Notes: a model not told the origin generated them from the sequence alone. A DNA stretch of 64,000 nucleotides from an uncultured Solirubrobacterales bacterium (GCA_963714115.1 OY970232.1:3625997-3689996), one strand, 5' to 3'. Shown: positions 15,535-55,383, counted from the stretch's first letter. Numbers and translations: made by a program.

Positions 15535-17949
15535 TTGTCTACCCAAGCGCTGTCGCCCATCTCTGAGAAGCTCGCGTTCTATCGGCGCGCGGCCAACTAC
15601 ATCGCGGTGGCGATGATCTACCTGCAGGACAACCACTTGCTCGAGGAGCCCCTGAAGCCCGAGCACGTCAAGCACCGTCTGCTCGGCCACTGGGGGACCG
15701 TGCCGGGGATCAACCTGATGTACGCGGGCCTCAACCGCCTGATCCTCGACAACGACGCGAGCGTCCTGCTGGTCACCGGGCCCGGTCACGGGGCGCCCGC
15801 GAACCTCGCCAACCTGTGGATCGACGGGTGCCTCGAAGACGTCAAGCCCGAGATGAGCCGCGACCGCGAGGGCCTCGCCAAGCTCGTGCGCCTCTTCTCC
15901 TGGCCCGGCGGCTTTCCGAGCCACATCGCCCCGATCGTGCCCGGCACGATCCACGAGGGCGGGGAGCTCGGCTACGCGCTGGCCACCGCCTTCGGGGCCG
16001 CCCTGGACAACCCCGAGCTGATCGTGGCCTGCATCGTCGGGGACGGTGAGGCCGAGACCGGGCCCACCGCGGGCGCGTGGCACTCCAACAAGTTCCTCGA
16101 CCCCGCCACCTCCGGGGCGGTGCTCCCGATGCTCCACCTCAACGGCTACAAGATCGCCAACCCCACGATCTTCAGCTCGATGAGCGACACCGAGCTCACC
16201 AAGCTCTTCGAGGGCTACGGCTGGCACCCCCTGATCGTCCAGGGCGAGGACCTCGACGGCGAGCTCGCCGCAGCGCTCGACACCGCCCACGGCGAGATCC
16301 GCGAGCTGCAGAACGCCGCGCGCGAAGGCAGCCGGCCGGTGCGGCCGATCTGGCCGATGCTGATCGTGCGCTCCCCCAAGGGCTGGACCGGCATCCGCGA
16401 GCTCGACGGCATCCAGGTGGAGGGCACCTCCAAGGCCCACCAGGTGCCAGCCATGCAGGCCCGCACCAACCCCGAGCACCTGAAGGCCCTGGAGGACTGG
16501 CTGCGCTCCTACGGACCCGAGGAGCTCTTCGACGCGAGCGGCGGCCCCGCTCCCGAGATCGCCGCGATGTGCCCCACCGGCGAGCGGCGCATGGGCGCCA
16601 ACCCCCACGTCAACGGCGGGCGCATGCGCGTCCCCCTGAAGCTGCCTGAGCTCGGCAGCCACGCTGTCGCGCTCGATGAGCCCGGCGGCGCAACCGAGAG
16701 CTCGCTCGGCGCGCTGGGGGGATACTTGGGCCAGGTCTTCGTGCTCAACCGCGATGAGGCCAACTTCCGCGTCGTCTGCCCCGACGAGGTCGCCTCCAAC
16801 CGCCTCGGTGCCCTGTTCGAGGTCGAGAACCACGCCTACGAGTGGCCCGTCGACCCCGAGATCAACCCCGACTACAAGCCCGACGGGCGCATCATGGAGG
16901 TCCTCTCCGAGCACAACTGCCAGGGCTGGCTGCAGGGCTACGTGCTCACCGGCCGCCATGGGGTCTTCCCCTGCTACGAGGCCTTCATCCCGATCGTCGA
17001 CGGGATGGTCAACCAGTACGGCAAGTTCCTCAAGATGTCCCGCGAGGAGGCCCCCTGGCGCGAGCCGGTGGCCTCGCTCAACTACCTGCTCACCTCCGAG
17101 GGCTGGCGTCAGGACCACAACGGCTACTCCCACCAGATGCCCGGCTTCATCAACTCGATGCTCAACCGTCGCGAGGAGCACGCGCGCGTGTACGTGCCGC
17201 CGGACGCCAACACGCTGCTGGCCACCATGGACCACTGCCTGCAGGCCACCGGCTGCATCAACCTCGTGATCGGCTCCAAGCTGCCGCTGCCGCAGTGGCT
17301 CTCGATGGACGAAGCCCGCGAGCACGTCCGCGCCGGAGCCTCCACGTGGAGGTGGGCCAGCAACGGCGACGACGGCGAGCCCGACCTCGTGCTCGCCAGC
17401 TGCGGCACGATCCCCACGATCGAGCTGCTCGCGGCCGCCAGCATGCTGCGGGAGGACGTGCCGGACCTCAAGGTGCGCTTCGTCAACGTCACCAACCTGT
17501 TCGCGCTGGCGGCGCCCGGCAAACACCCCGACGCGATGTCCGCCGCCGCGTTCAGCGAGATCTTCACCACGGACAGGCCGGTGATCTTCAACTTCCACGG
17601 CTACCCCTCCGCCGTGCACCAGCTGATCCACCGCCGCCCCCAGCAGGAGCGCTTCCACGTGCGGGGTTACGCGGAGGAGGGCACCACCACCACCCCCTTC
17701 GACCTGCTCGCGATGAACGGCGTCGACCGCTTCCAGCTCGCGATCGAGGGCCTCAGCCGCGTCGACATCGCGATCAGCGACAACATCGGCGGCATGTCCG
17801 GCGCGTTTGCGGTGCGCAACATCGGCGGCGCCCAGGAAGCGATCGCCAAGTACCGCGCGCAGCTCGCCAAGTACCGCAGCTACGCCCGCGAGTTCGGCGA
17901 CGACTCCCCCGAGCTGACCAAGTGGTCGTGGACGGGATCCAAGGCGTGA
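15535..17949 (+). CDS. xfp: Phosphoketolase (Xfp/Xpk family)
   Basis: SD aggggg + TTG; YRRAANY...YLQDN, LLGHWGTVPG, GPGHGAP, HEGGELGY, GDGEAETGP, NGYKIANP, QDHNGYSHQ. Confidence 0.95.
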   Translation: MSTQALSPISEKLAFYRRAANYIAVAMIYLQDNHLLEEPLKPEHVKHRLLGHWGTVPGINLMYAGLNRLILDNDASVLLVTGPGHGAPANLANLWIDGCLEDVKPEMSRDREGLAKLVRLFSWPGGFPSHIAPIVPGTIHEGGELGYALATAFGAALDNPELIVACIVGDGEAETGPTAGAWHSNKFLDPATSGAVLPMLHLNGYKIANPTIFSSMSDTELTKLFEGYGWHPLIVQGEDLDGELAAALDTAHGEIRELQNAAREGSRPVRPIWPMLIVRSPKGWTGIRELDGIQVEGTSKAHQVPAMQARTNPEHLKALEDWLRSYGPEELFDASGGPAPEIAAMCPTGERRMGANPHVNGGRMRVPLKLPELGSHAVALDEPGGATESSLGALGGYLGQVFVLNRDEANFRVVCPDEVASNRLGALFEVENHAYEWPVDPEINPDYKPDGRIMEVLSEHNCQGWLQGYVLTGRHGVFPCYEAFIPIVDGMVNQYGKFLKMSREEAPWREPVASLNYLLTSEGWRQDHNGYSHQMPGFINSMLNRREEHARVYVPPDANTLLATMDHCLQATGCINLVIGSKLPLPQWLSMDEAREHVRAGASTWRWASNGDDGEPDLVLASCGTIPTIELLAAASMLREDVPDLKVRFVNVTNLFALAAPGKHPDAMSAAAFSEIFTTDRPVIFNFHGYPSAVHQLIHRRPQQERFHVRGYAEEGTTTTPFDLLAMNGVDRFQLAIEGLSRVDIAISDNIGGMSGAFAVRNIGGAQEAIAKYRAQLAKYRSYAREFGDDSPELTKWSWTGSKA

Positions 17950-18090
17950 GGATGTCGAGAGCGCGCGATGACGTGCAGGGATCGATGAGCGCAAACGCCG
18001 CGAGGGACCTATGAGCGCTGACGCCGTGCAACCGGCGGACGCCCATCTCATAGCCGGCGGGATTCGCCCGGCGAGGAGGTGGAGGAGCCG

Positions 18091-18978
18091 ATGAGCACGG
18101 ACGTCGCGCAACGGGCGGACACCCTCCTCCAGGCCGGTAACTACCGGGAGAGCCATGAGGCCGCCCTGGCGGGCCTCGCCGCCGCGCCCGATGACGTCGA
18201 GCTGCTCGTGCTCGCCGGGCGCGCGGGCGTGGAGCTCGATGCGGATGACGCCACCGAGCAGCTGCGACGTGCCACCGAGCTCGAGCCCGAGCACGCCGGC
18301 GCATGGCACCACCTGGGCGAGGCGCTCGCCACCGAGGGACGCATGGACGAGGCCAATGAGGCCTTTCGCCGCGCCGTCGAGCTCGACCCCGCCGACCAGG
18401 TGGCGCTCAGCCACCTCGGCCACACCTCAGCCGCCACTGGCCGCGAGGAGGAGGCCGTGGGCTACCTCAGCCAGGCCGCGCAGAGCTTTCGCGGCGCCTC
18501 CACCGCGGCGATCAGCCTGGTCGACATGTACCGCACGCTCGGGCACTACGAGGAGGCGCTGGCCCAGGCCCAGCGCATTGCGGAGGCCGAGCCCGACGAT
18601 CTGGTGGCCGCGCTCGACGTGGCCGAGCTCAGCCTCGAGGTCGGCCGCCTTGACGAGGCGGTGGCCGCGTTCGAGCGTCTGCGCGAGCTCGACGACGTGC
18701 CCGGCCACGAGGTCTACCCCCTGCGCGGGATGATCAAGGCCGAGATCCAGCGCGAGGAGTGGCAGCGCGCGCTCGCGCTCGCCCGCGAGACGCCGCTCGG
18801 CGACTCCCAGGGACGTGCGGTCAACCTGGTCGCCTTCCTCCAGGCCCAGAGCGGTGAACCGGCCGAGCAGGCGCCCCCGCGGGAGGAGGTCGACGCCGCC
18901 CTGGCGGGGTCCCTGGCAGAGTACCGGCGCATGCACGCCGACGATCGCCGTCTAGCCACGGAAGACCTCCTTGGCTGA
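18091..18978 (+). CDS. Tetratricopeptide-repeat protein
   Basis: SD ggagg + ATG; repeated TPR helices (AWHHLGEALATEGRMDEANEAFRRAVELDP); overlaps the acc carboxyltransferase start. Confidence 0.85.
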   Translation: MSTDVAQRADTLLQAGNYRESHEAALAGLAAAPDDVELLVLAGRAGVELDADDATEQLRRATELEPEHAGAWHHLGEALATEGRMDEANEAFRRAVELDPADQVALSHLGHTSAATGREEEAVGYLSQAAQSFRGASTAAISLVDMYRTLGHYEEALAQAQRIAEAEPDDLVAALDVAELSLEVGRLDEAVAAFERLRELDDVPGHEVYPLRGMIKAEIQREEWQRALALARETPLGDSQGRAVNLVAFLQAQSGEPAEQAPPREEVDAALAGSLAEYRRMHADDRRLATEDLLG

Positions 18979-20707
18979 GGTGGCCACAGCCAGCCGCGCG
19001 GACGCGGTGGATTGGTTCCGCTGCCCCTCCTGCGCGGCCTTCGTCTACCACAAGCGCCTGCGCCGCAACCTCGGCGTCTGCCCCGACTGCAACCACCACT
19101 TCCGGCTGCGCATCCGCGAGCGCCTCGGCCAGCTGCTCGACGAGGGCAGCTTCGAGGAGCTGAGCGGCGACCTGGAGATCGTGGACGCGCTCTCCTTCGC
19201 GGACTCCAAGCCCTACGTGGAGCGGATCGCGCAGGCACAGAAGAAGAGCGAGACCAAGACCGGCGCGCTGCACGGCACCGGCACCATCGACGGCCTGCCG
19301 ATCGTGGTGGCCGGCATCGACTTCTCCTTCATCGGCGGCTCCATGGGGGGCGCGGTCGGCGAGTCGATCACCCGCGCCGCCGAGCTCGCCCTCCAGAACC
19401 GCACGCCGCTGCTGGTGATCTCCGCCTCCGGCGGCGCCCGCATGCAGGAGGGGTGCGTGTCGCTGATGCAGATGGTCAAGACCTCCCAGGCGATGGCACG
19501 CCTCGCCGAGGAGGGCGTGCTCTTCATCTCGCTGCTCACCGACCCCACCTACGGCGGCGTCAGCGCCTCCTACGCGACCCTCGGGGACATCCTGATCGCC
19601 GAGCCCGACGCCCACATCGGCTTCGCCGGGCCCACCGTGATCGAGCAGACCATCCGCCAGAAGCTCCCCGACGGGTTCCAGACCGCCGGCTTCCTGCTCG
19701 AGCACGGGATGCTCGACTTGGTCGAGCCCCGCGAGAGCCTGCGGCGCACGATCCGCAACCTGCTCGAGCTCCACGCCCAGGCCGAGGCGGCGCGTGGCGA
19801 GGACACCCAGGCGCGACTGCGGCGCCTGCCCGCCACCGAGGGAGCCGCGCCGATCGTCGATCCCGAGCAGCTCCCCGCGCGCGACCCCTGGGAGATCGTG
19901 CAGCTCGCCCGCCACATCGACCGCCCGCGGATGCTCGACCTCGTCGGCTTCGCCTTCGACGGCTTCCAGGAGCTCCACGGCGACCGCCTCTTCCAGGAGG
20001 ACCACGCGATCATCGCCGGTCTCGCGCGCCTGGGCGAGCTGACCGTGATGCTGATCGGCCAGCAGAAGGGCCACACCACGAGCGAGCTCGTGGAGCACAA
20101 CTTCGGGATGCCCGAGCCCGAGGGCTACCGCAAGAGCATGCGCCTGATGCGCTACGCCGCCCGCTTCGGCCTGCCGCTCGTCACGCTCGTGGACACCCCC
20201 GGCGCCTACCCCGGCCTCGGAGCGGAGGAGCGCGGGCAGTCCAACGCGATCGCCGAATCGATCATGCTGATGGTGCGCCTGCCCGTGCCCGCCGTGACCG
20301 TCGTCACCGGCGAGGGCGGCAGCGGCGGCGCCCTGGCAATCGCCGCGGGCGACCGCGTGCTGATGATGGAGAACGCCTACTACTCCGTGATCAGCCCCGA
20401 GGGCTGCTCGACGATCCTCTTCAAGGACGCCTCCGCCGCCCCCCGCGCCGCCAAGGCGCTGCGGATCACGAGCCCCGACCTGCTGCGCCTCGGCGTGATG
20501 GACGCCGTCGTGGCCGAGCCCGAGGGCGGCGCGCAGGCCGACCCACCGGTCGCCGGGGCCAACCTCAAGGCCGCAATCGTCGCCAGCCTCGGCGAGCTGC
20601 TCCCGCTGAGTGCCGACGAGCTGATCGCCCAGCGCTACGAGCGCTTTCGCAAGTTCGGCACCCCCGGGCGCCAGCCCACCCTTCCGCCAATCACAGGGGA
20701 GACATGA
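18971..20707 (+). CDS. accD: Acetyl-CoA carboxylase carboxyltransferase, fused beta (AccD) + alpha (AccA)
   Basis: Zn finger CPSC..CPDC, GGSMG, SGGARMQEG, PTYGGV; then GQQKG, PEGYRK, VDTPGAYPG, GEGGSGGA, ISPEGC. Confidence 0.93.
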   Translation: MAEVATASRADAVDWFRCPSCAAFVYHKRLRRNLGVCPDCNHHFRLRIRERLGQLLDEGSFEELSGDLEIVDALSFADSKPYVERIAQAQKKSETKTGALHGTGTIDGLPIVVAGIDFSFIGGSMGGAVGESITRAAELALQNRTPLLVISASGGARMQEGCVSLMQMVKTSQAMARLAEEGVLFISLLTDPTYGGVSASYATLGDILIAEPDAHIGFAGPTVIEQTIRQKLPDGFQTAGFLLEHGMLDLVEPRESLRRTIRNLLELHAQAEAARGEDTQARLRRLPATEGAAPIVDPEQLPARDPWEIVQLARHIDRPRMLDLVGFAFDGFQELHGDRLFQEDHAIIAGLARLGELTVMLIGQQKGHTTSELVEHNFGMPEPEGYRKSMRLMRYAARFGLPLVTLVDTPGAYPGLGAEERGQSNAIAESIMLMVRLPVPAVTVVTGEGGSGGALAIAAGDRVLMMENAYYSVISPEGCSTILFKDASAAPRAAKALRITSPDLLRLGVMDAVVAEPEGGAQADPPVAGANLKAAIVASLGELLPLSADELIAQRYERFRKFGTPGRQPTLPPITGET

Positions 20708-21264
20708 GCGAGAACGAGAACATCCCAGCCACCCCCGACCGCGAGCTGATCGAGTCCGTGTGGGCCGAGGCCCGCGACCTGATCAAGCGCCTGGAGGGCA
20801 GCACCGTGCAGCGCTTCGCGGTCGCCGCCGGCGACTACCGGATCGAGATCGAGCGCGGCTCCCCGGCAGTCGCGCCGGGCACTCCGGGCGTACCCCCCCC
20901 TCCTCCCCCCTTCCCCAGCGGACCTGTCGCCACCGGCGCGGGCCCGGGTATGAGCATCGCGCCCGGCGCGCGCATGGCCTCCGGCGTCTTCACGATCGGG
21001 GATCTCGAGGCCGACAACCGGGTGCCGGTCCTGGCGCCCCTGGTGGGCACCTTCTATGGCGCCGCCCAGCCCGGGGCCAAGCCGTTCGTCGAGGTCGGCT
21101 CGAATGTCGAGCCCGGGCAGACCGTGTGCATCGTCGAGGCGATGAAGATGATGAACGAGGTCGCCGCCGGCGAGGGCGGCAAGGTCGCCGAGATCGTTGT
21201 GGAGAACGGCGAGTGGGTCGAGTTCGAGCAGGTGCTCATGTACCTGGAGCCCGCCGATGACTAG
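20704..21264 (+). CDS. accB: Biotin carboxyl carrier protein
   Basis: ATGA overlap; Pro-rich linker; APLVGTFY, IVEAMKMMNEV biotinylation motif. Confidence 0.93.
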   Translation: MSENENIPATPDRELIESVWAEARDLIKRLEGSTVQRFAVAAGDYRIEIERGSPAVAPGTPGVPPPPPPFPSGPVATGAGPGMSIAPGARMASGVFTIGDLEADNRVPVLAPLVGTFYGAAQPGAKPFVEVGSNVEPGQTVCIVEAMKMMNEVAAGEGGKVAEIVVENGEWVEFEQVLMYLEPADD

Positions 21265-21365: not shown

Positions 21366-22733
21366 ATGTTCGAGAAGGTCCTGATCGCCAACCGCGGTGA
21401 GATCGCGCTCCGCGTGGCGCGCGCCTGCCGCGAGCTCGGCATCAAGTCGGTCGCGATCTACTCCACCGCCGACGCCGAGTCCGCCGTGGTGCGCTTCGCC
21501 GACGAGGCCGTGCACGTCGGTCCCCACCACCCCGGCAAGAGCTACCTGCACATCCCCAACGTGATCGGCGCCGCCCAGAAGACCGGCGCCGACGCGATCC
21601 ACCCCGGCTACGGCTTCCTCTCCGAGGACCCCTTCTTCGCGGAGATCTGCTCCGACAACGGGATCACCTTCATCGGGCCCCGCCCCGAGGTGATGGAGAA
21701 GGTGGGCGACAAGGCGATCGCCCGCGACCTCATGCAGAAGGCCGGCCTGCCGCTGCTGCCCGGGACGATCGAGCCCGTGCAGACGGCAGAGGAGGCCCAA
21801 GAAATTGCCGACGGGATCGGCTACCCCGTGATCATCAAGGCCGTCGCCGGCGGGGGCGGGCGGGGCATGAACGTCGTGCGCCGCGCCGAGGACCTCGTGC
21901 GCCTCTACCAGACCACCCGCGCCACCGCGCAGGCCGTCTTCAAGGACAGCGCCGTCTACATCGAGCGCTACCTCGAGGCCCCCCGCCACACCGAGGTGCA
22001 GCTCGTCTGCGACAGCCACGGAAACGGCGTGTACTTCTTCGAACGCGACTGCTCCGTGCAGCGCCGCCACCAGAAGCTGATCGAGGAGGCCCCCTCCATC
22101 CATCTCTCCGACGCCCAACGCAAGGACATCGGCGAGCGCGCCGTCGCCGGGGCCCTCTCCGTCGGCTACACCGGCGCCGGCACGATGGAGTTCCTGCTCG
22201 ACCACCAGGGCAACCTCAGCTTCATGGAGATGAACGCCCGCATCCAGGTCGAGCACCCCGTCAGCGAGATGGTCACGAGCGTCGATCTCATCCAGGAGCA
22301 GATCCGCGTCGCCGCCGGCGAGCCCCTGTCAGTCACCCAGGAGGACGTCGTCCTGCGCGGCCACGCGATCGAGTGCCGTGTCAACGCCGAGGACCCCGAC
22401 CGCGACTTCGCTCCCGCCGCTGGGCGCCTGGACGTCTACGTTCCCCCAGGTGGCCCCTGGACGCGCGTGGATTCCCACTGCTACCCCGGCTGGAACATCG
22501 CCCCCTTCTACGACTCCCTGATCGCCAAGCTGATCGTCTGGGCGCCCACTCGGCTGGAGGCGATCGAGCGCATGGACCGCGCGCTCTCGGAGTTTCAGAT
22601 CGAGGGGCGCGGCGTCAAGACCACGATCCCCTTCCACCGCCGCGTGCTCGCCAACGAGCAGTTCCGCTCCGGCGACGTGACCACCGACTTCGTCGAGCAC
22701 TTCCTCGCGCGCGAGGCGGTAACGGCGACATGA
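21366..22733 (+). CDS. accC: Biotin carboxylase
   Basis: KVLIANRGEIA, IHPGYGFLSE, GGGGRGM, ERDCSVQRRHQKL, EMNARIQVEH, RVNAED, FYDSLIAKL. Confidence 0.96.
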   Translation: MFEKVLIANRGEIALRVARACRELGIKSVAIYSTADAESAVVRFADEAVHVGPHHPGKSYLHIPNVIGAAQKTGADAIHPGYGFLSEDPFFAEICSDNGITFIGPRPEVMEKVGDKAIARDLMQKAGLPLLPGTIEPVQTAEEAQEIADGIGYPVIIKAVAGGGGRGMNVVRRAEDLVRLYQTTRATAQAVFKDSAVYIERYLEAPRHTEVQLVCDSHGNGVYFFERDCSVQRRHQKLIEEAPSIHLSDAQRKDIGERAVAGALSVGYTGAGTMEFLLDHQGNLSFMEMNARIQVEHPVSEMVTSVDLIQEQIRVAAGEPLSVTQEDVVLRGHAIECRVNAEDPDRDFAPAAGRLDVYVPPGGPWTRVDSHCYPGWNIAPFYDSLIAKLIVWAPTRLEAIERMDRALSEFQIEGRGVKTTIPFHRRVLANEQFRSGDVTTDFVEHFLAREAVTAT

Positions 22734-22821: not shown

Positions 22822-23685
22822 ATGAGCAGCGGTGAAGCCCCAGTCGAGATGTTGCCCGAGGTGCTGGACTATCTGGGCGAGCAGCGCACGCTCACACTTG
22901 CCACCGCCAGCCCCAGCGGGGTCCCCCACGCCGGCACCTTCCTCTACGTGCACGACGGCCCCGAGCTGTACTTCTGGACGAAGGCCCACACCACCACCGC
23001 CCGCCACATCGAGCAGAACCCGCTCGTCTCCTTCACGATCGACCGCTACTCCGAGGACCTCCAGAAGATCCGCGGGCTGCAGGGCAAAGGCGAGTGCCGC
23101 GTGATCCTCAGCGGCGAACAGATCGCCCGCGTGGCCGACCTCTTCGGGCAGAAGTTCCCCGCGCTCTCCCCCGGCACCACCATGACGATCTCGTTCTTTC
23201 GCATCGTGGCCAGCGAGCTGCAGTTCACCGACAACACCGACGCCGCCACCCACCAGGAGGGGACCTTCGGCGTGGAGTTCCACCGCGAGCGAGCCTACAG
23301 CGTCTTCAGCGACCTCCCCCTCCAGAGCGTCGCCAACCTCACCGGCGAGCTGCAGATCCTCGACTTCCCCGCCGGCGAGACGATCGCACGCGCGGGCGGT
23401 CCCGCGGACAAGTTCTTCATCGTCGTCGACGGCGAGGTCGAGGTCGGGCGCGAGGGCGCCGGCGACGAGGGGGGCGCCACGACGGCCTCGCTCGGCCCCG
23501 GGCAGTTCTTCGGGGAGCTCGCGATCCTGCGCGACCGGCCGCGGACGGCCACGCTGACGGCGCGCACGCCCACGCGGCTGCTCGCGATGGAGCGCGACAC
23601 CTTCCGCGACATCGTCGCCGAGTCCCTGGGGACCACCAAGGACTTCGATGAGATCGTCCGCGCGCGGCTGCGGATCCTCGACTGA
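22822..23685 (+). CDS. Pyridoxamine 5'-phosphate oxidase-like (split-barrel) domain fused to a cyclic-nucleotide-binding domain
   Basis: N-term TLTLATASPSGVPHAG...LYFWT....TARHIEQNPLVS; C-term GETIARAGGPADKFFIVVDGEVEV...FFGELAILRDRPRTATL. Confidence 0.85.
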   Translation: MSSGEAPVEMLPEVLDYLGEQRTLTLATASPSGVPHAGTFLYVHDGPELYFWTKAHTTTARHIEQNPLVSFTIDRYSEDLQKIRGLQGKGECRVILSGEQIARVADLFGQKFPALSPGTTMTISFFRIVASELQFTDNTDAATHQEGTFGVEFHRERAYSVFSDLPLQSVANLTGELQILDFPAGETIARAGGPADKFFIVVDGEVEVGREGAGDEGGATTASLGPGQFFGELAILRDRPRTATLTARTPTRLLAMERDTFRDIVAESLGTTKDFDEIVRARLRILD

Positions 23686-45601: not shown

Positions 45602-45862
45602 CTACTCCTGTTCTGAGAGGCGCCGGTTTACATAGTCAATCGCCTCGCCCACGCTGTGGATCTCCTCGGCGTCCTCGTCGGGGATCCTGAACCCGTAGTC
45701 CTGCTGCATGGCGAGCTGGATCTCCATGAAGGCGAGGGAATCCAGGCCCATGTCCTCGAACGTCGCTTCGCGGTCGTCCACGACGTCCGCCTCGGGGAGG
45801 CCCACGCGGTCCACGAGGATCCGCTTGAGATCGTCGAATTCGAACTTCGTCTGCTCAGGCAA
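45602..45862 (-). CDS. Type II PKS acyl carrier protein
   Basis: SD gaaggag + TTG; acidic 86 aa; F.DMGLDSLA phosphopantetheine motif. Confidence 0.92.
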   Translation of the reverse strand: MPEQTKFEFDDLKRILVDRVGLPEADVVDDREATFEDMGLDSLAFMEIQLAMQQDYGFRIPDEDAEEIHSVGEAIDYVNRRLSEQE

Positions 45863-45910
45863 TGCCGTCTCCTTCGGTAGCGGTTGATTGATCGACAGGG
45901 GTGTCGGTTT

Positions 45911-47803
45911 TCAGATCGACAGGGCGTCGGTCTGCGGATTGACAGGTGTGCTGGTCTTCGGGTCGACAGGTGTGCTGAGCGCCTGCAGCGCCGGCAGCTG
46001 CTCCAGCGCCGCTCGGCGCCCGGCGGCGAGAAACAGATCGGCGAGGTGGAAGTCTCGCCAATGGGCCGGTCCGAAGCGTGGCGTGATCGTCACGTCGGCG
46101 AGCTCGGCGTGGCGGGCGCTGGTCTCGAGCTGGCTCAAATCCATCACCTCCAGCAACGTGTCGAGCGTGCCGCCCCGCGCCTTGCGCTCGCGGGCGGGGG
46201 GCAGCTCGGGCTGCTCCGGCCACTCCGCCAGCATCTCGGCGCCCATCAGGTTGACCGAGACGGCGAGGTCGGCTCCATCCTCGAACACCGCCCCCGTCGG
46301 CACCGGCACGAGCGCCAGCCCGTCCACCAGGCGGTGTCCGCCGCGCTCGTGCGGGGGGTAGACCCCGGCCAGCGCGGTGGCGGCCAGCAGCGCCTCCCAC
46401 AGGGGCCCCTCGCGCAGGGGGGCGGGGGCGCGATCGGTGAGATCGACCGTCATCACCGCCAGCGGGATCAGCGTGTCGGCGAAGGAGCGCTCCGCGGTGC
46501 TCTCGCGCATCAGCCGGCTCATCGCCTCAAGTGCCGAGCCGCCCCCACCGAGCGAGGTTTTGAACAGCTCGGCCACGTTGTCGGCATCGAAGGTGCCCCG
46601 CAGGGTCGCGTCGATCTCCGCGGCGTCCATGCCCAGCGCCAGGTAGGCGCCCACAATCGCGCCGATGCTGCTGCCCGACACATAATCCACGACGTAGCCG
46701 GCCTCCTCGAGCACTTCCAGCGCGCCCACGTGGGCGTACCCCTTCGCGCCTCCGGCGCCGAGCGCCAGACCCAGCTTTGTTCGGGTGAGATGGCGCGCCA
46801 GCCACGCCTCGTCGGCGGGGGGCATCCCAGCTCCCGCCGGCGGGATGAGCCCGGCGCCGTCCCCGGTGGCCATCGTGGCGCCCGCCGGAGGCAGCCCGGT
46901 GCTGTTCGCCAAGCCATGCCTGGCGTCGTCTGGGGCCGTGAACCCGGCGCCGTCCGCCCGCAGGCAGGTGCGCACCACGCGAATCGGCGCGCCGGGCGGC
47001 CAGTCGCGGCTCGCCGCCACGGCCTCCTCGCCGACCAGCACGGCCTCCACCTGGGCGCCGCGCGTGTTCGGGGCCTGCGCGAGCGCGCCCAGCCGTTCGG
47101 CTTCGCCGGCCGAGCCGACCAGCGCCACCACGCGGTCCACGTCATCGAGCAGCACAGTCACGGTCTCGGGGTCGAGCTCGCCGGGCAGCAGCACGGTGGC
47201 GTGCTCGTCGGTCAGGTCGCCCGCGGCGGTCAGGGCGCCCGCGAACGAGAGGCGCCGGTCCAACCAGACCACCGGGCGGGGGCTCGCGCCGCGCGCGAGG
47301 GACGCCACGCGCGCCGCCGTGGCGGCCATCGCGGGCCCGCTGAGGAGCGCCACGGCCTCACCGCGCTGGCGCTCGACGCGGCGCGCGTTGGCCCTGACGA
47401 GGCTCTCGCTCTGGATGCGGATCAGGTTGATGAGGATCGCCGGGAACCGCTGCGCGAGCGCGAGGAAGCGCTCGGCGTCGAGCTCGAGGGCGGAGGAGGC
47501 GATCGCGGCCACCACGGTGGCGGTGCGCGGCTCGCCGGTGACCGCACCCTGAGCGCCCACCACGTCGCCCTTGCGCTGGCGGGCGAGCACCTCTCCCGCC
47601 GCGGCGTCGGCGCTCCCGGCGAGGACGTGGACGAGGCCCCCGGTGATCAGCCACAGCCGGTCGCTGCGCTCACCCGCGGCGCAGATCTGCTCGCCGGCGG
47701 CGAACGCCCGGGAGCGCATCTGCGCGGCGATCGCCTCGAGCTCCGGCCTGGCCAGCCCGGCGAACAGCGGGCTGGGGGGCAGCGGCGGCGAGGTGTGCGC
47801 CAT
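45911..47803 (-). CDS. Cyclic-nucleotide-binding domain + patatin-like phospholipase fusion
   Basis: N-term SPLFAGL..FAAGEQIC..GE.SDRLWLI..GLV...GEPRTATV; patatin GAGGAKG, GSSIG, VDG. Confidence 0.88.
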   Translation of the reverse strand: MAHTSPPLPPSPLFAGLARPELEAIAAQMRSRAFAAGEQICAAGERSDRLWLITGGLVHVLAGSADAAAGEVLARQRKGDVVGAQGAVTGEPRTATVVAAIASSALELDAERFLALAQRFPAILINLIRIQSESLVRANARRVERQRGEAVALLSGPAMAATAARVASLARGASPRPVVWLDRRLSFAGALTAAGDLTDEHATVLLPGELDPETVTVLLDDVDRVVALVGSAGEAERLGALAQAPNTRGAQVEAVLVGEEAVAASRDWPPGAPIRVVRTCLRADGAGFTAPDDARHGLANSTGLPPAGATMATGDGAGLIPPAGAGMPPADEAWLARHLTRTKLGLALGAGGAKGYAHVGALEVLEEAGYVVDYVSGSSIGAIVGAYLALGMDAAEIDATLRGTFDADNVAELFKTSLGGGGSALEAMSRLMRESTAERSFADTLIPLAVMTVDLTDRAPAPLREGPLWEALLAATALAGVYPPHERGGHRLVDGLALVPVPTGAVFEDGADLAVSVNLMGAEMLAEWPEQPELPPARERKARGGTLDTLLEVMDLSQLETSARHAELADVTITPRFGPAHWRDFHLADLFLAAGRRAALEQLPALQALSTPVDPKTSTPVNPQTDALSI

Positions 47804-47804
47804 C

Positions 47805-49436
47805 TCAGGCCCCCGCCTGGTGGGCGTGGAGGCCGCGGGCCAGCTCGCGCCGGTCGGGCTTGCCCGAGGGAAGCAGCGGCAGCTCGGGCACGACGCTGAC
47901 GCCATAGGGCACCTTGTACCCCGCGATTCCCGCCCGCGCGAAGCCGACGACGTCGCGCCCCGCGAGCCCAGCCCCGGGGCTCGGCACCACGAACGCATGG
48001 AGGGCTTCGCCCATCGCGGCGTGCGGCACGCCGATCACGCTCGCCTGGCCGACCGCGGGGTGGGTCAGCAGGAAGCTCTCGACCTCCGCGGGGAACACGT
48101 TGAAGCCGCCGACGTGGACCACTTCCTTGGCGCGTCCCGCGATCGAGAGGTTACCGGCGGCGTCGATCCCCCCGAGATCCCCGGTGCGAAACCACTCCCC
48201 GTCGAACGCCTCGTCGTGCTCGCGGGGACGGCCGTGATAGCCCAGGGTCACGTAGGGGCCGCGGACCTCGATCTCGCCCATCGCCTCATCTCCCTCGCAC
48301 GGCCTCTCCTCGCTCCCCCCCAGCGCCACATCTCGCTTGCCCGGCACCCCTCCCCCGCTCTCCCCCTCACCCACCACTCCGTGCACCTCTCTCGGCCCTC
48401 CATCCCCCTCGCCCATCCCGCCCCGCCCGCGGCGCACCACCCGGAACTCGTAGCCCGGGAGCGGACGGCCGACCGTGCGGTGGCGGACCTCCGGGGGGTC
48501 CTCGGGGCGGCAGCTGCTCGCCGCGCCGATCTCGGTCATGCCGTACACGTTGAGGATGCGCGCCTCGCGCCGGTCGAGCTCTTCGAGCACCTCCGGCGGG
48601 CAGGAGGATCCGGCGGTGAATCCGCTCCTCACGGGCAGCTCGTCGGTCGCCTTCAGCAGCCGCGCGAACAGGGCCGGCGAGCCGTGCAGCACGCGCGCCT
48701 CGTGACGGCGCAGCGCCGCCACGAGGGGCTGCAGGGAGGTCGTGGAGTCGACCAGCACCGCCTCCCCGCAGGCGGCCAGGTCGCACAGCAGGCAGGCCAG
48801 CCCGAACGCGTGCGAGCCGGGGACGACCATGACGCTCGCAGCCTGCGCGCTCTCGCCCAGCAGGCCGGCGAGGCACTGGCCCTCGGCGACGCCGAGAGCG
48901 TGTGACATCAGCGCGCCCTTCGGCTCCCCGGTGGTGCCGGAGGTGTACATGATCGCCGCCACGTCGGGGTGAAGCGGCGGCGCGGCCTCGCCGGCGGGCC
49001 AGCTCAGCTCCTGGTGGATCTCTCCGAGCTCGTCGACGACGATCCCGGTGGCCAGCGTCGGGATCAGCTCGCCGAGGGCGCCCAGCTCCCGCACGAGCGA
49101 GAACCCCCCGTGGGAGGCGAGCGATATGACCGCCGAGGGCTGCGCGTCGGCGAACACGCGCCGCAGCTCGAAGCTGCGCAGGCGGGCGCTCAACGGGACG
49201 ACGGCGGCGCCCGCGCGCCAGGCGGCGAACAGCGCGATCACGAGGGCGGGCACGTTGGGCGCGATCACCGCGACGCGCTCCCCCGAGCGCTCGCCCAAGC
49301 GCGCGGCGAGCCGGTCCACGGCAGTGTGCAGCTGGTGGTAGGTGAGCTCGACGTCGGCGTGGGCGAGGGCCGGGCGCTGGGGGCTCTGCGACACAGCCGC
49401 CTCCAGTAGAGAGCCGATCTGTGGTGGCTGCGACAT
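47805..49436 (-). CDS. Class I adenylate-forming enzyme (acyl-CoA/ACP ligase)
   Basis: YTSGTTGEPKG, YGMTE, FRTGDLG, GR.KE, GFNVFPAEVE, LPSGKPDR. Confidence 0.92.
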   Translation of the reverse strand: MSQPPQIGSLLEAAVSQSPQRPALAHADVELTYHQLHTAVDRLAARLGERSGERVAVIAPNVPALVIALFAAWRAGAAVVPLSARLRSFELRRVFADAQPSAVISLASHGGFSLVRELGALGELIPTLATGIVVDELGEIHQELSWPAGEAAPPLHPDVAAIMYTSGTTGEPKGALMSHALGVAEGQCLAGLLGESAQAASVMVVPGSHAFGLACLLCDLAACGEAVLVDSTTSLQPLVAALRRHEARVLHGSPALFARLLKATDELPVRSGFTAGSSCPPEVLEELDRREARILNVYGMTEIGAASSCRPEDPPEVRHRTVGRPLPGYEFRVVRRGRGGMGEGDGGPREVHGVVGEGESGGGVPGKRDVALGGSEERPCEGDEAMGEIEVRGPYVTLGYHGRPREHDEAFDGEWFRTGDLGGIDAAGNLSIAGRAKEVVHVGGFNVFPAEVESFLLTHPAVGQASVIGVPHAAMGEALHAFVVPSPGAGLAGRDVVGFARAGIAGYKVPYGVSVVPELPLLPSGKPDRRELARGLHAHQAGA

Positions 49437-49473: not shown

Positions 49474-50730
49474 CTAGCTCATGCGCCTGAGCACGAGGGC
49501 GCTGTTGAAGCCCCCGAAGCCGCGTGCGTTGACGAGGATCGTCGAGAGCTCCCCCGCCCGCTCGGAGCCCCGCACGAAGTCGAGCTCGAAGCCCTCCGCG
49601 GGCTCCTCGAGGTTGACGATCGGGGGCAGTGTCCCGTCGCGCATGCAGAGCAGCGCCGCGGCGGTGTCCAGCGAGGCGCCGCCCGCATACATGCGCCCGA
49701 CGCCGCTTTTGGGGGCGAGCACGGGCACGCGCGCGGCGTGCTCGCCGAGGACCGCCTTGATCGCCTGCACCTCCAGCGCGTCGATCTCGGGGACGCCGAA
49801 GGCGTCGGCCACCACCGCGTCGACCTCGCCTGGCGAGATGCCGGCGTTCGCGAGCGCCACCGACATCGCCCGTGCGGACTGCGTTGCGTCCGGTGCCGGG
49901 CGGCCCCAGTGGTGGGCGTCGTTGGTGGCGCCATAGCCCAGGATCTCGCCGTAGATCTGCGGGGCCCCCCGCTCCTGGGCGCTCTGGAGGCTCTCGACCA
50001 GCAGGATCGCTCCCCCCTCGCCGGGGACGTAGCCGTTGGCGCGCGCGTCGAACGGGCGGTAGGCCGCGGCCGGATCGGACTCGGTGCTAAGGAACCCGGT
50101 GCCGAGCTGGCAGGTGAGGGCGTAGGGGCCGATCGGCGCCTCCACGCCGCCGCTCACCGCTGTCTCCACGCCCCGGCGGATCGTGCGCCGCGAGTGGGCG
50201 AGCGCCTCCAGCCCGCCGGCCCCCTCCGCGAGCACCACGCCGGAGGGGCCCTTCATGCCGTGCTTGATCGAGATCTGCCCGGTGGTGGCGGCGTAGAACC
50301 AGGCGATCGACTGGTAGGCGCCCACGAACACCGGCCCCTTCTCCCACAGCGCCTGGATTTCGCGCTGCCCAAACTCGTTGCCGCCCGAGGAGCTGGCGGT
50401 GATCACGCTCATCGAGTAGGGGTCGTGCTCGGTCGGGTCGAACTTGGCGTCGTCAAGCGCGGCCTGGGCGGCGACGAGCGCCATCCACGTCCAGCGGTCG
50501 GTCTGCTTGATCAGCCGCTGGTCCAGGTGGTCGCCGGGCTCGAAGTCCCGCACTTCGCCGGCGAGCGTCACCGGGTAGCGCGAGGGATCGAAGCGCGCGA
50601 TGCGCTCGATCCCGCTCTGCCCCGCACGCGTGGCCGACCACCACGACTCGCGATCCTGGCCGGTGGGGGCGACCACGCCGATGCCGGTGATCACTGCGCG
50701 GCGGTCTGCCGATGGGATCGTGGGGCTCAT
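49474..50730 (-). CDS. Type II PKS chain-length factor (KS-beta)
   Basis: VITGIGVVAP, SSSGGNEFGQ, QSIAWFYAATTGQISI, VPGEGGA, NARGFGGFNSA; lacks the catalytic Cys motif. Confidence 0.95.
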   Translation of the reverse strand: MSPTIPSADRRAVITGIGVVAPTGQDRESWWSATRAGQSGIERIARFDPSRYPVTLAGEVRDFEPGDHLDQRLIKQTDRWTWMALVAAQAALDDAKFDPTEHDPYSMSVITASSSGGNEFGQREIQALWEKGPVFVGAYQSIAWFYAATTGQISIKHGMKGPSGVVLAEGAGGLEALAHSRRTIRRGVETAVSGGVEAPIGPYALTCQLGTGFLSTESDPAAAYRPFDARANGYVPGEGGAILLVESLQSAQERGAPQIYGEILGYGATNDAHHWGRPAPDATQSARAMSVALANAGISPGEVDAVVADAFGVPEIDALEVQAIKAVLGEHAARVPVLAPKSGVGRMYAGGASLDTAAALLCMRDGTLPPIVNLEEPAEGFELDFVRGSERAGELSTILVNARGFGGFNSALVLRRMS

Positions 50731-50825: not shown

Positions 50826-52118
50826 TCACAGCCCCGCGTTGCGGCGCTCGCCGGGGACCGAGAAGATCATCGCCGACTGAAAGCCGCCGAAGCCGCTGCC
50901 GGTCGAGAGCGCCACGTCGATCTGCTTGCGCACCGCAACCTTGGGCGTGTAGTTCAGATCGCACTCGGGGTCGGGGTTCTCCCAGTTAGCGGTGGGCGGC
51001 ACCACGCCGCGGTCGATCGCCAACGCGCAGGTCGCCATCTCGATCGCCCCGATTCCCCCAAGCGAGTGGCCCACCATCGACTTGATCGAGCTGATCGGCA
51101 CGTTGTAGGCGTGCTCGCCAAGGGTGTTCTTGTACGCCGCGGTCTCGTGCCGGTCGTTCTGCTTGGTGCCCGACCCGTGGGCGTTGATGTAGTCGATGTC
51201 CTCCGGCTTGGTTGCGCCCTGCGCCATCGCGTCGAGGATCGCCTCGCTCATCTCGCTCGCGTCGGGCTTCAGCCCAGTCATGTGGAAGGCGTTGCCGCGG
51301 CTGGCGAAGCCGGTTACCTCGCAGTAGATGTGGGCGCCGCGCGCCAGCGCGCTCTGCATCTCCTCGAGGATCAGCACCGCCCCGCCCTCCCCCATCACGA
51401 ACCCGTCGCGGTCGCGGTCGAAGGGGCGCGAGGCGTGCTCGGCGTCGTCGTTGCGCCGCGAGGTCGCCTTGATCGGGTCGAAGCACGCCATCGAGATCGG
51501 CGAGATGCCGGACTCCGCGGCGCCCGCGATCACGATGTCGGCCTCGTCGTCCTGGATCATCTGGTGTCCATAGCCGATCGCGTCGATCCCCGAGGTGCAG
51601 CCGGTCGAGACGACCACCGAGGGCCCGTGCGCGCCGAACTTCAGCGCCACCTCGCTGGCCAGGCTGCTGGGGATCAGCCCCTGGTAGAGGAACGGGGGGG
51701 CATAGTCGGGGTCGACCAACCACTCGCGGCCGTGGTTGGAGACCGCCACGTAGCCGTCCTCGAGCACCATCGTGCCGCCCACCGCCGAGCCGAGACTGAC
51801 CCCGGTGCGATCGAGGTCGATCCTCTCGCTCTCCAGCGCGCTGTCGGTCATCGCCTCCATCGCTGCGGCGACGGCGAACTGGATGTAGCGGTCCATGCGG
51901 CGCGTCTCGTGCTCGCTGAGGCCGGCCGCCAGCGGGTCGAAGTCGCACTCGGCGGCGATCTGGGAGCGAAACCCGGAGGCGTCGAAGAACGTGATGCGAC
52001 GCGTCGCGGTGCGCCCGGCGGTGATCGCCTCCCAGAAGGAGTCGCGCGTGCTGCCACCCGGGGCGACGACGCCGACCCCGGTCACGGCCGTCCTCCTTGG
52101 AATCTGCCCGCTGCTCAT
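50826..52118 (-). CDS. Type II PKS ketosynthase (KS-alpha)
   Basis: STGCTSG (catalytic Cys), YINAHGSGT.QNDRHET, SIKSMVGHSLGG, GSGFGGFQSA. Confidence 0.96.
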   Translation of the reverse strand: MSSGQIPRRTAVTGVGVVAPGGSTRDSFWEAITAGRTATRRITFFDASGFRSQIAAECDFDPLAAGLSEHETRRMDRYIQFAVAAAMEAMTDSALESERIDLDRTGVSLGSAVGGTMVLEDGYVAVSNHGREWLVDPDYAPPFLYQGLIPSSLASEVALKFGAHGPSVVVSTGCTSGIDAIGYGHQMIQDDEADIVIAGAAESGISPISMACFDPIKATSRRNDDAEHASRPFDRDRDGFVMGEGGAVLILEEMQSALARGAHIYCEVTGFASRGNAFHMTGLKPDASEMSEAILDAMAQGATKPEDIDYINAHGSGTKQNDRHETAAYKNTLGEHAYNVPISSIKSMVGHSLGGIGAIEMATCALAIDRGVVPPTANWENPDPECDLNYTPKVAVRKQIDVALSTGSGFGGFQSAMIFSVPGERRNAGL

Positions 52119-52531: not shown

Positions 52532-52647
52532 GCGCTTTCCTCGTCTCTCGTTCGTGGGACCGAGCCTGGGAATCTATCCAAGAGGGGTTATGCTTGCGCT
52601 GCGCTGGCGAGCGGGAGATCGGGAGGATCGGGTTGGAAGTCGGACAG

Positions 52648-53223
52648 ATGACATCGATCGACGTGATCGCCTCGGCGCTGGGCGACGCGCAGCCCCCGCT
52701 CGGCGAGATGAGCTCTCCGGACGGGGCCCTGACGCTGCTCTTCTGCGACATCGAGGACGCCGCGGGAATCCGCGAGGAGGTCGGCGCCGAGCGTTTCTCG
52801 GAGCTGCTGCGCGACCACCGCGCGATCGTCGAGCAGGTCATCCGCCACCACGGGGGCACGGTGGCGAAGTCCCACGACGACGGTTTCATGGTCGCCTTTG
52901 ACAGCGCCCACGCGGCGCTGCGCTGCGCGATCGACCTGCAGAGCTCGCTCGCCGACCGCACCGTCCCAGGGGGCGATCGTCCGCTGCGCCTGCGCGTCGG
53001 CCTGCACACCGGGTTCGTGATCGTCACCGACGAGGAGATGTACGGGCGCAACGTCGTGCTCGGCGCCCGCATCGCCGGCTGCGCGCGGGGCGGGGAGATC
53101 ACGGTCTCCTCGACGCTGAAGGAATACACCGAGACCGACCCCAGCTTTCGCTTCGAGGAGCGCGGCGAGCACCGCTTCAAAGGGGTCCTCGGCGAACATC
53201 ATGTTTTTGCCGTCCTGCGCTGA
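52648..53223 (+). CDS. Stand-alone class III adenylate/guanylate cyclase domain protein
   Basis: PDGALTLLFCDIE, VAKSHDDGFM, LRVGLHTG, YGRNVVLGARI, VSS; start ATG 52648 or TTG 52633. Confidence 0.88.
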   Translation: MTSIDVIASALGDAQPPLGEMSSPDGALTLLFCDIEDAAGIREEVGAERFSELLRDHRAIVEQVIRHHGGTVAKSHDDGFMVAFDSAHAALRCAIDLQSSLADRTVPGGDRPLRLRVGLHTGFVIVTDEEMYGRNVVLGARIAGCARGGEITVSSTLKEYTETDPSFRFEERGEHRFKGVLGEHHVFAVLR

Positions 53224-53313
53224 GGGCGCCTGCGGCGGTGAACAGATGAACCAGGCAAGCCCACCCGGCCGTCCAGGCCGGCGGGTATCGTGGCGTGGGC
53301 ACTGAGGAGCCCT

Positions 53314-55383
53314 GTGGCGCGAAACATCTACATCACGGCGATGGGCCCGCACAGCGGCAAGTCCGTCGTGGCCCTCGGTTTCGTCGAGATGCTCTCCGCG
53401 CGCCTGCAGCGCATCGGCTTCTTCCGCCCGGTCGTCCGCAGCGCCACCGAGCCGGACCCCCAGATCGAGCTGATGCGCGATCGCTACCAGCTTCGCTCCA
53501 GCTACGCAGAGATGCACGGCCCCACAGCCGAGGAGGTGACGGGCCTGAGCGCCCACGGCGCGCACGAGGAGATCGAGAAGCGGGTCCTCGCGGCCTATCG
53601 CGAGCTCGAGCGCCAGTGCGACTTCGTGGTCTGCGAGGGCACCGACTTCGTGGGCTCCGCCCCGGCGCTCGACTTCGACCTGAACGCCAACCTCGCCAAT
53701 CAGCTCGGCTGCCCGGTGCTGGTGGTTATCAACGGGGCGGCAAGCGCCAACGTCGTCGAGGAGGTGCAGCTCGCGCGCGAGGAGCTCCAGCGCAAGGACT
53801 GCGAGCTGTTCGGCGTGATCGTCAACCGCGTCGCGCCGGACGCGGTGGAGGAGGTCGAGCGCCGGCTCGCCCCCAACACCGGCCAGGAGTGGGTCTATGT
53901 GATGCCCGAGCACGCCGAGCTGGGCTACCCGAACGTGGGCGAGATCCAGGCCGCCCTCGACGCCCGCCCGGTGCTGGCGGTGGACGGGATGCTCGAGCGC
54001 GAGGTGCGCGACGTGCGGGTGGCGGCGATGAGCGCCGAGCACTTCATCGAGGATCTCGTGGACGGCGCCCTCGTGGTGGTGCCGGCCGACCGCTCGGACA
54101 TCGTCGTGGCCTGTCTCGCCTCCACCCTCTCCCCCTCCTTCCCCGCCGTCTCCGGACTGCTCTTGACCGGCGGTTACAAGCTCTCCCCCACCGTGCGGGC
54201 ACTGCTCGAGACCTCCCCCTTCCCGGTGTTCGAGATCGACGCGCGCACGCACGTCGTCGCGGCCGCGATCTCGGGCGTGAGGCCGGTGCTGCGGGCCGAG
54301 AACGAGCAGCGCATCGCCACCGCCCTGGGCGTCTTCGAGCACAGCGTGGACAAGGTCGAGCTGCAGATGCGCTTCATGGTGGAGCGCCCCACGCGGATGA
54401 CCCCGACGATGTTCGAGTACGAGCTGATCGAGCGCGCGAAGGCGGCGCGCCGGCACATCGTGCTGCCCGAGGGCGAGGACGAGCGGGTGCTGCGGGCCGC
54501 CGACATCCTGCTGCGCCGCGGCGTGGTCGCCCTGACGGTGCTGGGCGACCCCGAGGCGGTGCGCGCCCGCGCCGCCTCGCTCGGGTTGGACCTCGACGAC
54601 GCGCGGATCGTGGACCCCCTGAGCTCACCCGAGCGCGAGCGCTACGGCGCGGTCTACCACGAGCTGCGCAAGCACAAGGGGATGACCGAGGCGCTCGCCT
54701 TCGACACCCTCGCCGACCCCACCTACTTCGGCACGATGATGGTCCACCTGGGTGAGGTCGACGGCATGGTCTCCGGTGCTGCCCACACCACCGGCGACAC
54801 GATCCGCCCCGCGTTCGAGTTCGTCAAGTCCCGCCCCGGGGTCTCGGTGGTCTCGAGCGTCTTCTTCATGTGCCTCGCCGACCGCGTGCTGGTCTACGGC
54901 GACTGCGCGGTCAACCCCAAACCCGACAGCACCCAGCTCGCGGACATCGCGATCTCCTCCGCCGACACCGCCGCGGCGTTCGGCATCGCCCCGCGGATCG
55001 CGATGCTCTCCTACGCCACCGGGGACTCCGCCAAGGGCGCCCAGGTGGACGCGGTGCGCGAGGCAACCGAGACCGTGCGCCGGCTGCGGGGGGACCTCAA
55101 GGTCGACGGGCCGATCCAGTACGACGCCGCGGTCGACGAGAGCGTCGCCAAGCTGAAGCTGCCCGACAGCGAGGTCGCGGGCAGCGCCACGGTCTTCATC
55201 TTCCCCGACCTCGACACCGGCAACGTCGCCTACAAGGCCGTGCAGCGCTCCTCCGGGGCGCTCGCCATCGGCCCCGTCCTGCAGGGACTGCGCCGGCCGG
55301 TCAACGACCTCAGCCGGGGCTGCTCGGTCACGGACATCGTCAACACGGTGGCGATCACTGCGATCCAGGCGCAGGAGGGGTGA
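53314..55383 (+). CDS. pta: Phosphate acetyltransferase (long form with BioD-like and DRTGG-like domains)
   Basis: SD gaggag + GTG; [64 protein letters not shown]. Confidence 0.95.
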   Translation: MARNIYITAMGPHSGKSVVALGFVEMLSARLQRIGFFRPVVRSATEPDPQIELMRDRYQLRSSYAEMHGPTAEEVTGLSAHGAHEEIEKRVLAAYRELERQCDFVVCEGTDFVGSAPALDFDLNANLANQLGCPVLVVINGAASANVVEEVQLAREELQRKDCELFGVIVNRVAPDAVEEVERRLAPNTGQEWVYVMPEHAELGYPNVGEIQAALDARPVLAVDGMLEREVRDVRVAAMSAEHFIEDLVDGALVVVPADRSDIVVACLASTLSPSFPAVSGLLLTGGYKLSPTVRALLETSPFPVFEIDARTHVVAAAISGVRPVLRAENEQRIATALGVFEHSVDKVELQMRFMVERPTRMTPTMFEYELIERAKAARRHIVLPEGEDERVLRAADILLRRGVVALTVLGDPEAVRARAASLGLDLDDARIVDPLSSPERERYGAVYHELRKHKGMTEALAFDTLADPTYFGTMMVHLGEVDGMVSGAAHTTGDTIRPAFEFVKSRPGVSVVSSVFFMCLADRVLVYGDCAVNPKPDSTQLADIAISSADTAAAFGIAPRIAMLSYATGDSAKGAQVDAVREATETVRRLRGDLKVDGPIQYDAAVDESVAKLKLPDSEVAGSATVFIFPDLDTGNVAYKAVQRSSGALAIGPVLQGLRRPVNDLSRGCSVTDIVNTVAITAIQAQEG

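Follow-up and report, generated by a model that had tools for sequence, protein, structure and literature searches.

The window analysed here is a 64-kb stretch of DNA (~70% G+C) covering nucleotides 3,625,997–3,689,996 of a 3.75-Mb metagenome-assembled genome (MAG), which consists of one contig, is about 93% complete by estimate, and comes from a soil actinobacterium, an uncultured member of the Solirubrobacteraceae. Genes were called by third-position G+C, and the encoded proteins were scanned against Pfam. The subject of this study is an aromatic-polyketide gene cluster that extends from a phosphoketolase gene, xfp1, to a phosphotransacetylase gene, pta, and includes genes of a type II polyketide synthase (PKS) as well as genes for acetyl-CoA carboxylase (ACC), beta-carbonic anhydrase (CA), and malonyl-CoA:acyl carrier protein transacylase (FabD). 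The original prediction had placed xfp at the left edge, pta at the right edge, and accD-A, accB, accC, the beta-CA gene, and fabD inside, and the Pfam scan recovered all of these genes at or near the predicted positions. It had also pointed to the absence of the acetate kinase gene ackA from the window, which is borne out: the sole ackA of the genome is located elsewhere (C1:121786–122721).

Genes of the supply set and the synthase

The supply genes and the genes identifying the PKS type are as follows (coordinates are those of the window).

15535–17949, plus strand: xfp1, cluster-type phosphoketolase, 804 aa (XFP_N/XFP/XFP_C, E 7e-149, 8e-76, 8e-76)
18079–18978, plus strand: TPR-repeat protein (TPR families)
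18971–20707, plus strand: fused AccD-AccA carboxyltransferase of the E. coli type, 578 aa (Zn_ribbon_ACC, Carboxyl_trans, ACCA)
20704–21264, plus strand: accB, biotin carboxyl carrier protein (EAMKM motif; Biotin_lipoyl, E 5.6e-19)
21366–22733, plus strand: accC, biotin carboxylase (Biotin_carb_N, CPSase_L_D2, Biotin_carb_C)
29239–30174, minus strand: fabD, malonyl-CoA:acyl carrier protein transacylase, cluster copy (Acyl_transf_1)
30177–30689, minus strand: beta-carbonic anhydrase, directly upstream of fabD (Pro_CA)
45602–45910, minus strand: PKS acyl carrier protein (ACP) (PP-binding)
49474–50730, minus strand: chain-length factor (CLF), i.e., ketosynthase (KS) beta (ketoacyl-synt N and C domains)
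50826–52118, minus strand: KS alpha (ketoacyl-synt N and C domains)
53290–55383, plus strand: pta, long-form phosphotransacetylase (PTA_PTB, E 9.6e-128; AAA_26, E 8.5e-26; DRTGG, E 7.9e-21)

The start codon of xfp1 is TTG at position 15535, preceded by a Shine-Dalgarno sequence, GGGGGGAAG. For accB, an open reading frame (ORF) from a mechanical ORF list, 20760–21260, was rejected as lying in the wrong frame, the EAMKM motif and the Biotin_lipoyl domain being in 20704–21264. The genes from xfp1 to a flavin reductase gene downstream of accC are all transcribed in one direction, with overlaps or gaps not exceeding 130 bp (the stop of the TPR gene overlaps the start of accD-A by 8 bp, and the overlap between accDA and accB is 4 bp), and this sequence layout suggests that they are co-transcribed. 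When the region 14.5–31 kb was scanned for promoters and terminators, no site resembling a promoter was detected; terminator-like sites were fewer than in shuffled sequences, and none of them was on the plus strand. This is evidence neither for nor against an operon.

Xfp1 aligns over its full length with solved phosphoketolases (8io8, E 1.4e-263, residues 13–799), the GDGE thiamine-diphosphate region included. In Pta, the PTA_PTB catalytic domain is preceded by AAA_26 and DRTGG, as in long-form enzymes of the E. coli type, and the sequence contains an LSRG...D stretch, which we take to be the catalytic motif. The carboxylase has the components of a multi-subunit ACC, namely, the AccD zinc ribbon with the AccA half, the EAMKM biotin carrier, and the three-domain biotin carboxylase. 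The beta-CA aligns end to end with Rv1284 of M. tuberculosis (E 1.6e-48) and retains the zinc motifs CxDxR (CMDSR) and HxxC (HHTNCG). FabD carries GQGSQ, the GHSLG serine, Arg, and AAFHS, presumably motifs of the malonyl type. As judged from these features, the supply enzymes are intact members of their families. The synthase is of type II: KS alpha has the active Cys within TGCTSG, the CLF lacks the active-site Cys, and the ACP is discrete.

Co-inheritance of the supply set with type II PKS genes

The genus sample comprised 44 genomes (24 examined first and 20 more from the family sample); every genome compared in this study, within the genus or beyond it, is a MAG. A true pta was found in only five of the 24 genomes (G000, G002, G007, G009, and G011), and these are exactly the genomes with an xfp 92–94% identical to xfp1, while the remaining members of the 24-genome set have either only the second phosphoketolase type, xfp2 (see below), or no xfp; pta is absent from the 20 further genomes as well. 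Over all 44 genomes, pta, xfp1, and the fused accD-A are confined to these five carriers, except that accD-A was not detected in G009, where xfp1 is at a contig end. In all four genus genomes having both genes on one contig (G002, G007, and G011 among them), xfp1 and pta are 34–38 kb apart, and the accC of the other genus carriers is 96–98% identical to that of the window. The xfp2-type gene of G007 is in two pieces. If xfp and pta were the sole copies in their genomes and occupied the same positions in relatives devoid of PKS genes, the link with polyketide synthesis would dissolve; the non-carriers, however, have neither pta, nor xfp1, nor the fused accD-A.

These data also bear on the possibility that xfp and pta are ordinary housekeeping genes, between which a PKS cluster was inserted. 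Indeed, both genes are on the plus strand at the two edges of the cluster, and these edges feature low-GC patches and a tRNA-Gly gene. Yet the genus members lacking the PKS are entirely devoid of pta and xfp1; xfp1 is not of the vertical actinobacterial type; in other genera, pta sits within the set, adjoining xfp1 or the ACC genes; and carriers differ in the sequence that surrounds the set. Splitting of a pair of housekeeping genes by an inserted cluster is thus contradicted, and we consider it extremely improbable.

The G+C content of the island (69.95%) is close to that of the genome (69.5%), and hence base composition gives no hint of a recent import. On the left, a tRNA-Gly(GCC) gene at 11696–11770 is followed by a patch of 64% G+C (to 15534) with ORFs lacking Pfam matches; no part of this flank (11696–15534: the tRNA-Gly gene, the patch, and the ORFs) is conserved in other carriers. 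The tRNA was considered as a consistent attachment site and rejected, as tRNA-Gly is 3.8 kb to the left of xfp here and 9 kb in locus L025, whereas other carriers have tRNA-Arg or none. An ORF resembling ECF sigma factors (~14325–15394, minus strand, divergent from xfp) was rejected as a member of the set, being conserved in no other carrier. On the right, pta is directly followed by a low-GC insert (window 55384–58995; 56% vs. 69.5% G+C of the genome) with a PIN-domain gene and an ORF of 733 aa lacking a Pfam match, and then by a 70-aa copy of the 3' end of pta, 86–91% identical. As the right-flank genes directly follow pta in G002, the low-GC stretch is an insertion in this genome.

Outside the genus, screening of one genome per species revealed phosphoketolases of the xfp1 type (74–94% identity) in 17 further Solirubrobacterales species, the next-best matches being at most 59% identical and coming from other phyla. 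In all 17 loci, xfp1 is followed by the TPR and ACC genes (accC in 17 out of 17, and accD-A in 16 out of 17 past the coverage filter); pta is on the same contig, 0.5–50 kb from xfp1, in each of the 13 evaluable species; and KS genes are situated between or beside xfp1 and pta. Linkage of xfp and pta to KS genes in relatives, a check suggested in the original prediction, extends to 20 out of 20 evaluable genomes for xfp and pta on the same contig, and KS genes are beside the set in 21 genomes. Over all carriers, which represent about 28 species and at least eight genera, xfp invariably adjoins TPR-ACC, and wherever the contigs are long enough, pta is no more than 50 kb away and type II KS genes neighbour the set. 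Among 401 family genomes, pta co-occurs with accD-A (8/0/0/393 for both, either one alone, and neither; Fisher p 6e-17) and with xfp1 (7/1/1/392; Fisher p 2e-13); the sampled genomes are related, and so these p-values overstate independence, the carriers nonetheless spanning at least eight genera. The same layout recurs in many independent assemblies, single-contig ones included, which makes misassembly unlikely.

The gene order within the set varies between genera. In G089 and G173, xfp-pta-TPR-accDA-accB-accC form one contiguous string (in G089, the gap between xfp and pta is 4 bp, and the CA gene is just upstream), and in G334, CA-pta are divergent from xfp-TPR-ACC. The bracketing of the cluster by xfp and pta, with pta and the cyclase at its far end, is peculiar to this genus, while elsewhere pta is inside the set, next to xfp1 or the ACC genes. 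The TPR gene lies between xfp/pta and accD-A in all 17 loci and in further mapped carriers, as well as in G127, where xfp and pta are missing. A nucleotide cyclase gene of class III adjoins pta across the genus and is inside the cluster in other genera; a PNPOx-cNMP fusion is linked to the cluster in each of the two PKS variants described below, in both of which the flavin reductase is conserved too. Altogether, three parts related to cyclic nucleotides (cNMP) accompany the cluster: this fusion, a cNMP-binding patatin, and the cyclase. One may speculate that these cAMP parts, the cyclase and the two cNMP-binding proteins, gate the cluster.

Loci of other bacteria served as a comparison. Among 63 such xfp loci, ackA is beside xfp in 35, and none has pta, ACC, CA, fabD, or KS genes within 10 kb of xfp. 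A tree built from 80 phosphoketolases places the xfp1 proteins of the island in one clade with support 100 and a long stem, whereas xfp2 groups with other Actinomycetota; since the two are in different deep branches, xfp1 did not arise by recent copying of the resident gene. Thus, the supply set is co-inherited, distinct from housekeeping genes, and always found with type II PKS genes.

Other copies in the genome and the proposed route

A census of gene copies in the genome by tblastn identified a second phosphoketolase gene, xfp2 (119,273–121,618), 51–53% identical to xfp1 and directly followed by the sole ackA. The housekeeping ACC genes encode a biotin carboxylase of the actinobacterial type (1.068 Mb) and carboxyltransferases (1.061 and 1.638 Mb); a housekeeping fabD is at 1.641 Mb (C1:1641158), beside fabF, and a second carbonic anhydrase gene is at 1.912 Mb (C1:1911743). 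Separate housekeeping copies, expected if the cluster genes are dedicated ones, therefore exist for ACC, fabD, beta-CA, and xfp (as xfp2 with ackA); the expectation fails for pta, as the cluster gene is the only full pta of the genome and hence no duplicate of a housekeeping gene.

As xfp2-ackA is located apart from xfp1, pta, and the ACC genes, acetyl-phosphate has two genetically separate outlets. Judging from the gene content, the common route would yield ATP and acetate, and the cluster route would lead via acetyl-CoA to malonyl units. One could argue instead that Pta operates mainly with the distant AckA, either in acetate overflow (acetyl-CoA to acetate and ATP) or in acetate uptake, and that Xfp1 has only a catabolic role in the breakdown of sugar phosphates. 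The reversibility of Pta is established enzymology, ackA does exist in the genome, and the pairing of xfp with ackA is common in other bacteria. However, on a circular genome ackA would be about 230 kb away from the cluster (the distance on the contig as laid out being 3.5 Mb), and its neighbour is xfp2 rather than pta; other genera wedge pta between xfp1 and the carboxylase genes, an order that fits the sequence from acetyl-phosphate to acetyl-CoA to malonyl-CoA; and acetate uptake, too, would amount to a form of supply. We find it quite unlikely that this is the principal function, although overflow via Pta and AckA might proceed in parallel.

Phosphoketolases produce acetyl-phosphate with no loss of CO2, and Pta reversibly converts acetyl-phosphate to acetyl-CoA. 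We propose that the genes described above are probably a precursor-supply sub-cluster built into the type II polyketide gene cluster. Xfp1 would cleave fructose-6-phosphate or xylulose-5-phosphate to acetyl-phosphate, CO2 not being lost; Pta would then form acetyl-CoA with no ATP spent; the E. coli-type carboxylase (AccD-A, AccB, AccC) would convert it to malonyl-CoA; the beta-CA would rehydrate CO2, including that released at each chain-extension step, to bicarbonate for the ACC; and the cluster FabD would load malonyl onto the carrier protein of the PKS. The direction and size of the flux, and the product pathway as its main consumer, are what we infer from this scheme. The proposal of a natural carbon-conserving module dedicated to the polyketide is supported by comparative genomics as regards the module itself, its carbon-conserving and dedicated character being presumed from enzymology and linkage.

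Several observations weigh against this proposal. In G002 and G009 (93–94% complete), no xfp2-type gene was found, so that xfp1, being the only phosphoketolase, is not a private extra copy there. In the two carriers G043 and G269, both incomplete MAGs, no pta was detected. In the genome studied here, the sole pta might, along with the distant ackA, function in general acetate metabolism as well. Carbonyl sulfide (COS) and carbon disulfide (CS2) hydrolases, members of the same subfamily, were weaker matches in the search with the beta-CA, and CO2 is therefore the presumed substrate. Finally, whiE-like cores with KS 71–75% identical occur in G214, G430, and G368 in the absence of xfp, pta, CA, and E. 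coli-type ACC, and thus the synthase can do without the set. G127 has TPR-accDA-accB with KS/CLF and no xfp or pta. The resulting pattern, where the set is always with a PKS and a PKS is not always with the set, is the one expected of an accessory booster.

Some of the same facts would also be compatible with xfp1, pta, ACC, and CA forming a general carbon-metabolism island (for lipids, or for growth on pentoses or acetate), which neighbours PKS genes due to shared history rather than function. The single pta, the single xfp of G002 and G009, the genome-like G+C content of the island, and the related PKS cores devoid of the set all agree with such an island. On the other hand, in about 21 evaluable genomes the set is never away from type II PKS genes despite repeated rearrangement of the gene order, a malonyl-ACP loader is part of it, the genome already has housekeeping ACC and fabD, and most of the genus lives without pta. 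We therefore regard a general island as unlikely, albeit the most plausible of the three alternatives, and favour the precursor-supply sub-cluster.

Polyketide synthase cores, known systems, and significance

The remaining genes between xfp1 and pta include the following.

22822–23685, plus strand: PNPOx-like domain fused to a cNMP-binding domain (Pfam)
23715–24215, plus strand: flavin reductase (Flavin_Reduct)
24295–29217: flavin monooxygenase and two FHA-domain ABC exporter genes, between the flavin reductase gene and fabD
30749–31567, plus strand: SDR ketoreductase of the PKS (adh_short_C2, KR)
41294–45135: second region with a flavin monooxygenase and an exporter pair
45128–45598, minus strand: aromatase/cyclase, SRPBCC (Polyketide_cyc)
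45911–47998: cNMP-binding patatin
52594–53223, plus strand: class III adenylate/guanylate cyclase, 66 bp upstream of pta (Guanylate_cyc)

Left to right, the ketoreductase gene is followed by genes for ABM monooxygenases, a SchA/CurD-like protein, and a 6PGDH-like reductase, then for an amidohydrolase, more flavin monooxygenases, a halogenase-like protein, and a TcmI-like cyclase, after which comes the second exporter pair. An acyl ligase gene is located between those of the cNMP-patatin and the CLF, and a cupin gene is between KS alpha and the class III cyclase. The monooxygenase and FHA-ABC pair at 24295–29217 has no counterpart at the matching spot of the otherwise collinear G002 cluster; its proteins are 44–58% identical to their best G002 matches, which are the counterparts of the second set (window 41294–45135). 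Elsewhere in the same genome, two more KS pairs, accompanied by fabD- and KR-like genes, are found near 46–57 kb (region C1:23–57 kb), and repeated type I PKS modules form a very large run of about 250 kb (C1:2.16–2.41 Mb).

The core resembles the whiE/sch/cur spore-pigment PKSs in the order cupin-KS-CLF-ACP-aromatase/cyclase-TcmI-like cyclase and in the SchA/CurD-like protein. It differs from the whiE type in having the acyl ligase and the cNMP-patatin between the CLF and ACP genes, as well as the halogenase, several flavin monooxygenases, the FHA-ABC exporters, and the supply set. Around residue ~170, the CLF reads AEGAGGLEA, with Gly where canonical chain-length factors carry Gln; the same Gly, or Ser, is seen in CLF orthologues of four other genera, including clusters with no ligase insertion. 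An association of this Gly with the acyl-ligase insertion was considered and rejected, since relatives lacking the module and relatives lacking the ligase share it.

The supply set accompanies two different synthases. The window KS and its G002 counterpart share 95% identity, whereas the KS found between the same brackets in G007, G009, and G011 is just 38–40% identical to the window KS. The synthase genes of G011 encode an ACP, a KS, a FabA-like dehydratase, a second KS, a KAS III, a fused KS-KS, and a ketoreductase, and they are accompanied by genes for halogenase-like enzymes, a multicopper oxidase, an MMPL protein, and an FHA-MFS exporter; in gene content, this core resembles a reducing type II system or an aryl-polyene-like one. 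The second core is carried by loci L007–L009 (G011) and L010–L012 (G007), and in G145 both cores are next to one supply set (loci L100–L103). Common to both core types are xfp, TPR, accDA, accB, and accC (93–98% identity), the cyclase and pta (83–92%), and, at lower identity, CA (70–77%) and fabD (62–64%), as well as the PNPOx-cNMP fusion, the flavin reductase, and the halogenase. It is conceivable, though we hold this only tentatively, that xfp-pta-TPR-accDA-accB-accC with CA, FabD, and the cAMP parts constitute a portable malonyl-ACP cassette that has been joined to different type II PKS cores, the conserved ends (xfp to accC, 93–98%; cyclase and pta, 83–92%; compared with 62–77% in the interior) flanking core exchange or loss, and that the cassette runs a near-closed carbon loop, in which acetyl units come from sugar phosphate with no CO2 lost and the CO2 set free by each condensation is returned through CA and ACC.

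ACC genes inside type II PKS clusters are known, for example, jadJ of jadomycin and XanB1–B3 of xantholipin. Similarly to these, the carboxylase described here is a cluster enzyme, distinct from the housekeeping one, that would supply malonyl-CoA; it is, however, a multi-subunit ACC of the E. coli type and is combined with FabD. While the known examples stop at the carboxylase, the present set extends two steps further back, to Pta and phosphoketolase, and adds CA and the conserved TPR partner. The full-text literature searched, whose coverage is incomplete, contained no natural cluster with phosphoketolase and Pta, nor any type II PKS cluster in which a carbonic anhydrase adjoins ACC. Thus, cluster-embedded precursor supply is already known, and its extension back to sugar phosphates is new in the literature searched.

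The phosphoketolase of the common xfp-ackA pair, whose route ends in acetate and ATP, belongs to the same family, and the genome has such a pair as well in xfp2-ackA. The partners of the cluster clade are pta and ACC, in all carriers vs. none of the 63 outgroup loci. Non-oxidative glycolysis (NOG) is a synthetic cycle in which phosphoketolase yields acetyl units from sugar phosphate with no CO2 loss; the phosphoketolase entry is alike, and in our case this entry enzyme and its outlet alone are seen. Modules of phosphoketolase and phosphotransacetylase (PK-PTA) engineered in yeasts use the same two enzymes with the same stated purpose, the provision of acetyl-CoA and polyketides, and, for example, such a module raised resveratrol production in Yarrowia (PMC13500920). 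Those modules are man-made from genes of different organisms, whereas the set described here is natural and co-inherited, and comprises CA, ACC, and FabD, too.

If the supply set works as proposed, evolution has reached the same design for boosting acetyl-CoA and malonyl-CoA as metabolic engineers, and a portable cassette, were it confirmed, would be the natural counterpart of the engineered PK-PTA and NOG designs. If it works in this way, the supply set would also offer a ready-made, co-adapted group of genes, including the TPR partner of ACC, for heterologous polyketide production, and would point cluster-mining tools to primary-metabolism genes that are now treated as cluster borders. Finally, our analysis draws attention to uncultured Solirubrobacteraceae, which carry two type II polyketide pathways, both uncharacterised and probably halogenated.

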